The notes below the pieces were generated by a model that searched no databases, was not told the origin of the DNA, and saw nothing but the letters and a program-made list of their open reading frames with translations. Below, piece by piece: positions 9,752-60,332 of a DNA stretch of 64,000 nt. The number at the start of each line of letters is the position of its first letter. The first letter of the stretch is position 1. The position numbers and the translations under genes were made by a program. Source of the DNA: Octopus vulgaris (Eukaryota); the NCBI GenBank assembly GCA_951406725.2, contig OX597830.1, forward strand, positions 9,238,001 through 9,302,000. The letters are read 5' to 3'.

Positions 9752-10370
9752 AATGCCTACTTAATCTCTCACTATTACATTCAAGAGCGCTTTGGCATTA
9801 GTCTGCACCGTGTAGCGGTATTTCGTCTGCCTTTATGTTCTGAGTTCAAATTCCGACGAGGTCGAGTTTGCCTTTCGGGTTCGATAAATTAAGTACCAGT
9901 TGCATACTAGGGTCGATCTAATCGACTGGCCGACCCCCCCCCCCCACCTAAATTTCGGGCCTTGTGCCTAGAGCAGAAAAAGAAAATTGCTACAAGGCGA
10001 GCAATTTTCAGGGAGAGGAATAAATCGATTACATCAATCTCAGTATGCAACTGGTTCTTATTTTATCGATCCTGAAAGGATGGAAAGCAAAGTCGTCCTC
10101 GGTGAAACTGGACCTCATAACGAAAAGACGGACGAAATGCTGCTAAGCATTTTGTCCGGTGTGCTAACGATTCTGCCAGCTCGCCGCTTTCCTTGATATT
10201 CGTTTCAAATTTTGACAATGCCAGCAATTTTGGGAGATGGTTTAAATCGGTGACATCAATCCCAGTGTTCAACTGGTAATTATTTTAGTGACCCCGAAAG
10301 GATAACAGGCAGAGTCGACCTTGGCGGAATTTAATCCTAGGACGAAAGGACGGCCGAAATGTGCCTTCCT
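9490..10370. mobile_element. Cluster of four decayed family A SINEs (others at ~3225-3427, ~18990-19290, ~19815-19980)
   Basis: Repeated GACCCCGAAAGGATGAAAGGCAAAGTCGACC-like core on both strands. Confidence 0.8.
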
Positions 10371-13923: not shown

Positions 13924-14571
<648 letters not shown>

Positions 14572-24921: not shown

Positions 24922-24983
<62 letters not shown>

Positions 24984-25172
24984 AAAATAGTAAAGTGTGA
25001 AAAAACGACAGAAGGCTTAAATGTTAAAAAAAATATATATTTGTGTCAAAATGTCTGGAGAATATTGGAAAAAATTTTTTCCTTTCCTTAAAATGACATA
25101 ATTTTAAAATTTTTAAAGAAATTACCGGTTTCGCGTGTAGCTTAAATCATTAAATCATTAAATCATTAAATC

Positions 25173-25679
25173 ATTAAAAGCTACAAACAGCCTAAATCAC
25201 TTAAAAAGATTCTCACAAAGGCAAAATTGTCTTCTAAAATTACGGATGCAAAAGTAAAAAAATGTGGTAGATCGAACTGTGCAACATGTCCTAACCTATT
25301 GGAAGGATCAGAATTCTTCTTTAAAGAGGGACAGAAATTCAAGATCAAATCTAACTTTACTTGTGCCTCTGAAAACATAATTTATGTTATTAAATGCTCG
25401 GGCTGCCACCAAGACTACGTGGGTTCCACGGGACTATCACTCAGGCGTAGATGCACACTGCATCGACAACAGATTGCATTCCCAGAATATAGAATGATAC
25501 CTTTTAGTGAGCACATTGAGAAATGCGCAAAACAACTACTGCCACAATTTTTAATCTTCCCATTTTACCAATGTGCTTTCGGATCATCAACACAAATGAG
25601 ACTGAACAAGGAAACATTCTTCATTGAAAAGTACAAACCCAGACTCAACCATCCGAACATACTGACACAGAGAAATTAA
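25173..25679 (+). pseudogene. C-terminal GIY-YIG endonuclease domain of a PLE ORF (RT part lost)
   Basis: Open frame IKSYKQPKSLKKILTKAK...KKCGRSNCATC...FTCASENIIYVIKCSGCHQDYVGSTGLSLRRRCTLH...RLNKETFFIEKYKPRLN*. Shows the Cys-rich linker, IIY/YVG motifs and conserved R, H, E, N typical of Neptune-clade PLEs. Confidence 0.9.
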
Positions 25680-25814
25680 CAAGGAAAAGGGAAAAAAATT
25701 TTTAAGCGATTATCTCCCTTACACCGGAAGAAATCACTCACTACCTCCCCTTATTTAGAAATCTCCTGAAAATAAACACAACGATAACTCCATGCAATAT
25801 AAACATAACGTCAC

Positions 25815-25854
25815 AAGAAATTTGAAAAGCTACACGCGAAACCGGTAATTTCTT
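25815..25854 (+). ncRNA. Minimal type I hammerhead ribozyme, U3:A8 core variant
   Basis: AAGAAAU-UUGAAAA-GC(UACAC)GC-GAAAC-CG-GUA^AUUUCUU: 7 bp stem I, palindromic ACCGGU stem III, located in the PLE 3' UTR. Confidence 0.75.
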
Positions 25855-26007
25855 TAAAAATTTAAAAATTATGTCATTTTAAGGAAAGGAAAAAAATTTT
25901 TCCAATATTCTCCAGACATTTTGACACAAATATATATATTTTTTAACATTTAAGCCTTCTGTCGTTTTTTCACCCTTTACTATTTTCTTATATACCAAAC
26001 AAACTTT

Positions 26008-28687: not shown

Positions 28688-28936
28688 TACACAGAAAAGA
28701 AACAAGGAGAGAAAAAAAATGCGTGTAGGTATGCATATATATACACACACATATATATATTTATATGATAATGATATAATTTTAAATCGTAATTTTAATA
28801 TTAATTTCATATAACCGGTTATTGAAAAGACCGTTAGTTAAAAGGACCCATGAAACCAAAACCAATTTCAAATGTGTATCTCTCAATGTATTGTATATTT
28901 ATACATATAACGTTATTTTTTGTTCCGTTCTCAACT

Positions 28937-28982
28937 AAAACTGTCCGACGAACGGGAACGTGAAACTCCGAGTCACAGTTTT
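28937..28982 (+). ncRNA. Type I hammerhead, CCGACGA (C4) core variant
   Basis: AAAACUGU-CCGACGA-ACG(GGAA)CGU-GAAAC-UCCGA-GUC^ACAGUUUU; 8 bp perfect stem I. Confidence 0.75.
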
Positions 28983-29039
28983 CCTGATGGTTTTCAAGTT
29001 TTATTAACAAAGTATATATATATATATACAAATAATTAA

Positions 29040-29430
29040 TATATAAAAGTGAAGTTGTGTGTCTGTCTCCTACGATTTAGATTCCTAACTACTCCCACAT
29101 TTTGCGGTGCAGTTTAACCAAAACCGGGTATCTTGTAGTCGTGATTCATATCGAGCCCTTCTGGGTATTAGCGCGCGTCTACGATGAGTCTACGATTTAA
29201 AAAAAATTTACCATCATTTTTTTCCATTTTAATGCATTTCTTCGCTATTATATAAGGGAAGTAACTCTCTAAAAATGTCTACGAAGAGTCAACGATTAAA
29301 AAAAAAATTACCATCATTTTTTGTCCGTTTTTTATGCATTTTTTTGCTATTTTTTTGGCTATAACTCTCTAAAAATGCTTATATAGTTATTTCCCTTACA
29401 AACCCGAGCAACGCCGGGCGATACTGCTAG
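29040..29430 (+). mobile_element. Non-autonomous Helitron-like element
   Basis: 5' ATATAAAAGTGAAGTTGT; 3' hairpin CCCGAGCAACGCCGGG then ATACTGCTAG|T; internal tandem duplication (~29175-29278 and ~29278-29375). Confidence 0.8.
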
Positions 29431-30960: not shown

Positions 30961-31033
30961 TGCATACAACCGTTTCGTACATAGATATAAATTCATTTTA
31001 GAATTTGCACATATCAAAGTACTCATCAGTGCA
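30961..31033 (-). ncRNA. Type I hammerhead ribozyme, canonical core, extended stem II
   Basis: UGCA-CUGAUGA-GUAC..GAUAU..AAAUUC/GAAUUU..AUAUC..GUAC-GAAAC-GGUU-GUA^UGCA. Confidence 0.85.
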
Positions 31034-43944: not shown

Positions 43945-44305
43945 TTGCAGAATTTTCTTCAGGCCGAGTAGACCATCCCACTCAAAAGGTCCCTGAATAA
44001 GGTTTGTTTAAGGATGTTGAACAAAACACCCATGTTTCCAGAGGTGAATTATCCAAACCAAAAAGAATTCCTCTCACTCCCCCACTAGTTCCTCACGTGA
44101 TCAGAGATGCACATATCGTCAGCCACCAAGGAACATGCTCAACTGGTTAAGGTCAAACAACTGACAAGCAAATCTGTGGTATTGAGCAGAATATTTGCTG
44201 TAGTCCATCTTTTAATACCAAGACAGAACAATGTACATAATAACACTTCCAATCAGTTAAGATCAGAAGCCACGAGACCCACTGCCTGGTACTGCATCAG
44301 GGCAA
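43945..44305 (+). mobile_element. Probable retroposon 3' end with (ATT)n tail
   Basis: Unique-looking block ending ...GCCTGGTACTGCATCAGGGC, directly followed by (ATT)n. Confidence 0.4.
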
Positions 44306-47007: not shown

Positions 47008-47055
<48 letters not shown>

Positions 47056-47152
47056 GCAATAATCACGGAATGCAAAACAAAGTGGAAAAAATAGTACTCG
47101 AATACTTGAGGTAGAGTAATATGCTTTATTAAAGCGCAGCAAAAATATCACA

Positions 47153-47197
47153 AAAACTGTTGCTCAGAGTTTCACGTTCCCGCCGTCGGACAGTTTT
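47153..47197 (-). ncRNA. Degenerate second copy of the CCGACGA hammerhead family (island ~47053-47200)
   Basis: AAAACUGU-CCGACG-GCG(GGAA)CGU-GAAAC-UCUGA-GCA-ACAGUUUU; A9 missing and cleavage triplet mutated. Confidence 0.6.
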
Positions 47198-47394
47198 GAT
47201 AATATATATATATACATATATATATAAAATTAGAAAAAAAACCCCACCTTTTATCAATTCAAAATAAACAATTAAATTACACCATCTAGAAAATTACATA
47301 TAATAGAAATATTAAAATTAAAATAGCAATAAAGTGTCAATGATTAAGTAAATTGCAAAAAAAAATATAATAAAAACGTATATAATTTGTAGAA

Positions 47395-47483
47395 TAACGA
47401 CACGTGTTTCATGGCTATATTTAAGAAATGATTATAGTAGTAGAGAAATCACTTCGATATAAATATAGTCACTCATCAGGTTA
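47395..47483 (-). ncRNA. Type I hammerhead ribozyme, canonical core, long stem II
   Basis: UAAC-CUGAUGA-GUGACUAUAUUUA...UAAAUAUAGCCAU-GAAAC-ACGU-GUC^GUUA, with inner helix GAAGUGAUU/AAUCAUUUC. Confidence 0.85.
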
Positions 47484-60050: not shown

Positions 60051-60136
60051 GTATATATATATGTATGTATGTATATATAGCAAATGGAAGACAGCTGTTG
60101 GATTATACAAGAATGGAGTATACGAGAATTTGTTAA

Positions 60137-60239
60137 TCACGGCAATTGTTTCGACACATCTAGCATCGATTCCTCTTGGGTGGGACACTCAACAACTGGT
60201 TCAGGAGCATCCGGTGGTGCAGATGTATCTCGTCGGTTA
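60137..60239 (-). ncRNA. Degenerate hammerhead with long stem II
   Basis: CCGACGA-GAUACAUCU...AGAUGUGUC-GAAAC-AAUU-GCC; cleavage triplet and stem I are eroded. Confidence 0.5.
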
Positions 60240-60332
60240 GTAAATAAATAAAAACAACTCTTTAAAGTGACTGTTCCACAACGTAACTTTCCGTTTTGTA
60301 GGGAGAAAAGCAGCCAGACGGAGGAAATATCT

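Follow-up and report, generated by a model that had tools for sequence, protein, structure and literature searches.

A hammerhead-like motif with cytidine at position 4 is the core of a multicopy repeat family

The motif and its variation across the family

The window analysed (the whole stretch of 64,000 nt of Octopus vulgaris DNA) contains, at 28937–28982 of the plus strand, a type I hammerhead-like motif in which position 4 of the catalytic core, a near-invariant uridine in hammerheads, is a cytidine. This motif (copy 1) represents the conserved core, 46 nt long, of a repeat family with many copies, visible as a peak of summed contig depth in all four sequencing runs used. C4 is the family letter in the runs of three organisms and not a product of decay, since no other letter reaches 2% of the depth at position 4. 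The interpretation favoured here, with moderate confidence, is that of a C4 hammerhead carried by a multicopy family, likely as a Penelope-like terminal repeat or stubs, and predicted to cleave slowly, in dimeric form, after GUA.

The 5′ strand of stem I (28937–28944) pairs with 28975–28982 through eight of eight Watson-Crick pairs, the distal two or three of which differ among subfamilies. The core, CCGACGA (C3-C4-G5-A6-C7-G8-A9; 28945–28951), has C4 at 28946 in place of the canonical U4, while the six other positions match the canonical C3-U4-G5-A6-N7-G8-A9. Stem II (ACG-GGAA-CGT; 28952–28961) consists of 3 bp (A-U, C-G and G-C) and a GGAA loop of the GNRA type; its closing pair is A10.1-U11.1, as against the usual G-C, and no extra base follows A9. 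The segment 28962–28974 holds G12-A13-A14, the palindromic stem III (28965–28973) and N17 (28974), with the predicted cut between 28974 and 28975. GAAA occupies 28962–28965, stem III has 4 bp and a single unpaired centre base (28969), and U16.1 and C17 lie at 28973 and 28974; G12-A13-A14, the A15.1-U16.1 pair and an H at position 17 are all present. Three stems of 8, 3 and 4 bp surround the core, stem I being open and stem III complete only in a dimer. The geometry given in the preliminary description (8 bp stem I, GGAA-capped stem II, C at the site of U4) was found exactly as described.

The standard tests for a canonical type I hammerhead failed in two respects, the U4 core (C occupies position 4 in copies 1 and 2 and in the family) and the match to Rfam. 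A search of the copy-1 region (28880–29010) with Rfam, hammerhead models included, returned no match at E values up to 10, and in the whole window, among 150 of 455 rows, the only matches were microsatellite-driven ones to miRNA models below the gathering score. The top sub-threshold match came from a long, near-perfect inverted repeat (hairpin) at 14300–14448, probably a foldback or MITE-type insertion. Further, the lone copy-1 monomer RNA was predicted to fold no more stably than shuffled sequences (z +0.36). The missing Rfam match and the unremarkable monomer are what a DNA-level short inverted repeat, or a chance hairpin with an accidental likeness to hammerheads, might yield. This reading is nevertheless highly improbable: every core position other than 4 matches, a strict descriptor had a single match in the 64-kb window (copy 1) and none in 100 dinucleotide shuffles, and the variation within the family falls at the site that a hammerhead leaves free, the centre of stem III. 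A descriptor match on the minus strand overlapping copy 1 was treated as chance.

The family was followed in four of eight sequencing runs, namely X1 and X2 (organism A), X4 (organism B) and X5 (organism C), leaving out X3, X6, X7 and X8; X1 may derive from the sample of the window itself, and X4 and X5 are of an unspecified library kind. Contigs were aligned on 28908–29012 at 80% likeness (1,426 for X1, 2,003 for X2, 1,275 for X4 and 1,151 for X5), and differences were listed from 2% of depth upwards. Summed depth reached 162,000–895,000 at 28956–28959, against 0–273 at 28908–28911, and dropped again after 28983; since summed contig depth does not give a copy number, these figures support the claim of many copies and nothing beyond it. 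The depth plateau at 28952–28967 is that expected for overlapping 31-mers of a 46-nt core, and at either end of the core 63–99 contigs per run extend beyond it. One contig of X4 links the motif region to its opposite strand, which suggests a head-to-head (inverted) pair of family copies.

Letters differing in at least 2% of the depth made up six rows at five places, none of them at 28946 in any of the four runs, and no indel reached 2% in these runs over 28908–29012. U4 stayed below 2% of the depth at 28946 in 4/4 runs, in an alignment that is blind to a sister family combining U4 with a different stem II. The consensus of the copies thus has C at position 4, and the initial claim that this is a C4-core hammerhead family is borne out. 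The claim that the family is cut at GUC is not: A stands in place of C at 28974 in 99.4, 99.4, 99.6 and 98.0% of the depth (X1, X2, X4 and X5, respectively), so the cleavage triplet of the family is GUA, and GUC is peculiar to copy 1. Inside the motif, the only highly variable, multi-allelic site was the centre base of the stem III palindrome (28969), with T in 52, 48, 46 and 98.6% and A in 23, 23, 20 and 0.4% of the depth (same order of runs). Whichever letter it carries, this base would be mismatched in the dimer, and variation there is what a dimeric hammerhead predicts. Among the rarer changes, G8A made up 2.1–2.4% of the depth and C>T at 28959 1.3–2.8%, both being CpG-type changes; A>C at 28938 reached 2.5–9%, at low depth. 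Apart from the C>T at the adjacent 28959, the GGAA loop, a candidate partner of stem I in a tertiary contact, showed no variant at the 2% level.

The proximal 6 bp of stem I were invariant. Loose ends of contigs occurred before 28939 and 28942 and behind 28980–28982, and their consensuses, TCAC with GTGA and, in X5, TGAAC with GTTCA, hint that the distal stem I variants are compensatory, the two ends being unphased. Organism C (X5) has a different dominant subfamily, with T in 98.6% at the centre of stem III and another distal stem I, and still keeps C4. Since the loose ends of the subfamilies place a G at position 1.7, a contact between a GNRA loop and U1.7, an idea taken from minimal hammerheads, is not favoured here, and constrained folding for a conserved distal extension of stem I yielded different extensions for copies 1 and 2. 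Altogether, the pattern of variation fits selection on the hammerhead fold, though it is also shaped by the choice of contigs resembling the core and by a young burst of copies; part of the conservation could come from such a burst with few masters.

Seed loss in the alignment is unlikely to hide U4, because G8A, which leaves a shorter exact stretch in majority-type copies (18 nt, as against 22 nt with U4), was detected. Rare variants are under-weighted in depth shares, as fewer overlapping contigs carry them, and the real share of U4 may therefore be a few-fold above 2%, yet not a majority. One contig of X2 equals copy 1 without a difference over 28947–29012 and is clipped exactly before 28947; the X2 allele of the copy-1 locus therefore probably has another letter at position 4.

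Copies and other hammerhead-type motifs in the window

The window is AT-rich, with many (TA)n tracts and other microsatellites, and holds transposon fragments and no long genes. In this it looks like the genome of an invertebrate animal, and its repeats may be of a cephalopod-like kind. Copy 1 lies within a stub (28910–29012, plus strand) placed between (TA)n tracts at 28900–28909 and 29013–29030, and is followed by a 30-nt tail. Past the second tract, at 29030–29380, there is a repeat with an internal 100-nt duplication (29177–29277 and 29277–29377, 82%), which we take to be Helitron-like at its 5′ end.

Copy 2 (47153–47197, minus strand) shares 84% identity with copy 1 over 58 nt and lies 18 kb from it on the opposite strand, both copies being single. 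It was put forward in the preliminary description as a second member with a CCGACG core; that core is present, with C4 kept at 47188, but the copy is not an intact member of the family. Because A9 has been lost and the cleavage triplet is GCA instead of GUH (U16.1 to C), copy 2 is probably dead. Its stub (47054–47199, minus strand) consists of the motif and a 99-nt tail with AATAAA at 47130, lying between (TA)n tracts at 47008–47053 and 47200–47226. The tail of copy 1 looks like a diverged relative of that of copy 2 (14 of 30 ungapped positions match), and the 3′ loose-end consensus of the C4 family resembles the copy-2 tail with an agreement of just 0.52–0.69.

A third fold (60133–60244, minus strand) had also been suggested, at 60137–60239, as a C4 example. 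It is a long-stem-II hammerhead remnant unrelated in sequence to copy 1, with its first C at 60236, the segment GAAAC-AATT-G, and C at 16.1. It is best read as having U4 deleted and U16.1 changed to C: aligned in this way it has six of eight stem I pairs and a C-G closing pair, as opposed to five of eight pairs and an A-G closing mismatch if it is read as U4C. Because the deletion reading pairs stem I better, the fold is poor evidence for a second C4 family, and a decayed, U4-deleted hammerhead is preferred, though not decisively.

Two further motifs have the canonical U4. The first (47395–47483, minus strand) belongs to another family and has a CUGAUGA core, a long stem II, a palindromic stem III and GUC; it lies on the strand of copy 2, about 200 nt upstream, and belongs to a second stub of the (TA)n cluster that also holds copy 2. 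The other (30961–31033, minus strand) also has a long stem II, and its stem III contains two G-U pairs, which two A-to-G changes in a palindrome may have produced. Another candidate, CCGACGAG at 9853, was rejected because no GAAA lies within a plausible stem II distance (the first is at 9976), and the long-spacer descriptor matches at 44127–44020 and 16567–16456 were treated as chance. In the decayed motifs, T-to-C or A-to-G transitions account for several of the damaging changes (47162, 47183–47184 and 60142); these could reflect either an editing-type hypermutation acting on retroelement RNA or mere drift.

The T-to-C changes in copy 2 and in the third fold, together with the U4 of the other hammerhead families of the window, would suit an account in which decay or hypermutation had produced the C4 copies from an ordinary U4 family. 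This account is very doubtful, since U4 stays under the 2% level in all four runs although the near-universal differences from copy 1 at 28969 and 28974 were detected.

Carrier element and comparison with known hammerheads

An indication of the kind of element that could carry the C4 motif comes from a truncated Penelope-like insertion elsewhere in the window (24981–25945, plus strand). It contains a GIY-YIG-like ORF (25170–25679) with a CX4CX2C linker (Pfam GIY-YIG at E 0.0042, which falls short of the curated cut-off), a U3-A8 minimal hammerhead (25815–25854) 135 nt downstream of this ORF, and a copy of its own 3′ end in inverted orientation (BLAST match at 25143–25025, 97.5% over 119 nt). 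This inverted copy extends toward a (TA)n tract (24925–24980), and its break point lies within the core of the hammerhead, at a short tandem repeat. This layout is the arrangement described for Penelope-like elements (bioRxiv 2021.04.23.441226). An insertion bias for (TA)n has been reported for several Penelope clades (bioRxiv 2021.04.23.441226), and both window copies of the C4 motif are truncated copies with (TA)n tracts on either side. No reverse transcriptase or endonuclease ORF, among the ORFs of the window, adjoins copy 1 or copy 2, so the link to Penelope is one of context. By analogy, the C4 family is likely to represent a Penelope-like 3′ end or terminal repeat, or non-autonomous stubs.

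The minimal and variant type I hammerheads of Penelope-like elements share with the C4 motif the type I topology, a palindromic and unstable stem III and a predicted dimer, as well as dispersed truncated copies, a high copy number and the occurrence of core variants such as U3-A8 (PMC4209133). The short palindromic stem III of the dimer type is seen in copy 1 at 28965–28973, with its centre free; a model in which palindromic stems III pair in a dimer has been put forward for Penelope-type hammerheads (PMC4209133; PMC6765202). They differ at position 4, which is U in all 56 representatives of Fig. S3 of PMC4209133, a survey that could not find C4 because its descriptor fixes ‘cuganga’. The Penelope minimal consensus also has an extra base after A9 and a G10.1-C11.1 pair, whereas the C4 motif has neither, with A10.1-U11.1 instead, and shows a 3-bp stem II with GGAA, an 8-bp stem I and, in the window, no attached ORF. 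The M. japonicus example in the same source likewise lacks both the extra base and G10.1-C11.1 (PMC4209133).

The short stem II, and a stem I whose proximal 6 bp are invariant and whose distal pairing varies, resemble the canonical type I motifs of animals, and one could therefore think of an active C4 hammerhead of a non-LTR retrozyme or SINE-like family, with tandem units of 150–400 bp and a circular RNA intermediate, in place of a Penelope terminal repeat. Retrozymes occur in molluscs and other invertebrates and share with the C4 family a type I hammerhead, a short palindromic stem III and a non-autonomous repeat nature (PMC7229834); they may themselves derive from Penelope elements (bioRxiv 2026.07.22.740005). 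However, they form tandem units of ∼170–400 nt and are expressed as circular RNAs (PMC7229834), whereas both C4 copies in the window are single stubs in (TA)n, with tails ending after 30 and 99 nt. A retrozyme origin is accordingly judged improbable, and a Penelope-like terminal repeat or stub remains the preferred assignment.

Cytidine at position 4, folding and cleavage

Whether C4 is found in otherwise complete hammerheads was examined in IMG/VR phage contigs with a single fixed pattern, and the matches were checked by script for complete stems of type I or type III. With U4, 129 of 133 among the matches listed were complete, with ∼1,200 stretches estimated in all. With U4C, 36 of 41 matches were complete hammerheads of types I and III (27 distinct strings). 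The other letters at this position gave 0/1 (U4A) and 0/8 (U4G), and the transition controls 1/4 (G5A) and 0/7 (A6G). Complete phage hammerheads with U4C number 36, as against 0–1 for each of these other changes; nature thus tolerates U4C, and does so well beyond the background level of core substitutions, in agreement with the earlier suggestion of a tolerated natural variant. These intergenic phage hammerheads resemble the C4 family in having C4 within an otherwise complete hammerhead; unlike the family, they are a minority (41 matches against the estimated ∼1,200 for U4), monomeric, and endowed with a stable stem III. Patterns specific to the C4 family gave one match each in viral and metagenome contigs, neither of them a hammerhead, and a longer family-specific pattern gave none in these contigs.

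The substitution itself is not new. A natural U4C variant of a viroid hammerhead retained infectivity, its activity being sufficient in vivo, while its cleavage in vitro was much slower (Ambros and Flores 1998, via PMC3088659), and attenuated cleavage by the C4 family would agree with this precedent. The viroid case concerns the same change but one variant (PMC3088659), whereas here it is the majority letter of a multicopy animal repeat family. One published descriptor already writes CYGANGA and notes the C/T degeneracy (PMC13481778), while a term search of PMC11014351 returned no passage on U4C. The C4 motif is not a new ribozyme class. No high-copy animal family fixed for C4 was found in the open-access literature; the work of Lunse et al., reportedly a large survey of Penelope hammerhead variants, could contain one.

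Folding predictions are compatible with a dimeric hammerhead. In a dimer of majority letters the hammerhead fold has −22.9 kcal/mol, against −23.9 kcal/mol for the dimer minimum, the gap of 1.0 lying within the error of the model. For copy 1 as it stands, the dimeric hammerhead lies 3.5 kcal/mol above the dimer minimum; with U4 in place, it is the predicted minimum. The predicted competing fold, which C4 adds, pairs C3-C4-G5 with C-G-G of stem II. On the favoured model of slow dimeric cleavage, two copies on one transcript, as in tandem terminal repeats, would pair their palindromic stem III strands and create two active sites, and the cut, between N17 and the 3′ strand of stem I, would fall after GUA and trim the RNA of the element. 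C4 would keep the contact made by position 4, in a weakened form and possibly as a protonated cytidine. A cytidine has no N3 proton unless it is protonated. In U4 hammerheads the contact is to the phosphate between A6 and N7 (PMC3088659), and a protonated C, its pKa above 8.2, takes the place of U in the U-turn of a riboswitch (PMC4105743). A protein of the element likely assists cleavage, by analogy with the Penelope hammerhead of Anolis, which cut only when protein was present (PMC11167929). The copies in the window, as 5′-truncated stubs with private damage, are probably less active than the family type, or dead.

The same Anolis study can be read in the opposite sense, as insertion in vitro was unaffected in hammerhead mutants of this one Penelope element tested, and reads ending at the cut site were absent (PMC11167929); it thus supports both the assistance of a protein and a possible, though rather unlikely, alternative in which the C4 fold no longer cuts usefully. 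On that alternative, C4 would have hitch-hiked in a successful master, cleavage being dispensable, and the structure would be kept as a protein-binding or primer-positioning signal or would simply be young. Consistent with it, the minimal hammerheads of Penelope elements cleave poorly even with U4 (PMC4209133), the hairpin that C4 adds competes with the active fold in the predictions, and variant shares of ∼2% suggest a young family. Against it, the catalytic positions and H17 are intact while the centre of stem III varies and the tails diverge, and it is U4C specifically that phage hammerheads tolerate. A slowly cleaving hammerhead is thus still preferred.

U4C had been on record as a rare viroid variant, and here it is the norm of a multicopy animal family. 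C4 sits in a CpG and could revert to U by a simple transition, yet it has become the family letter. A tentative and, on present evidence, unlikely extension is that C4 is selected, a retroelement lineage common to several related animals using a gated hammerhead that works only when protonated; the pairing of C3-C4-G5 with stem II would keep the ribozyme off until a dimer or an element protein refolds it. If this were true, a layer of C4 hammerheads in animal genomes would have gone uncounted, since common descriptors fix CUGANGA; genome searches fixed on this string can in any case miss whole families. The C4 family is a natural experiment on the ability of a cytidine, perhaps a protonated one, to take the role of U4, and bears on whether Penelope-type hammerheads are selected to cut slowly, or at all.
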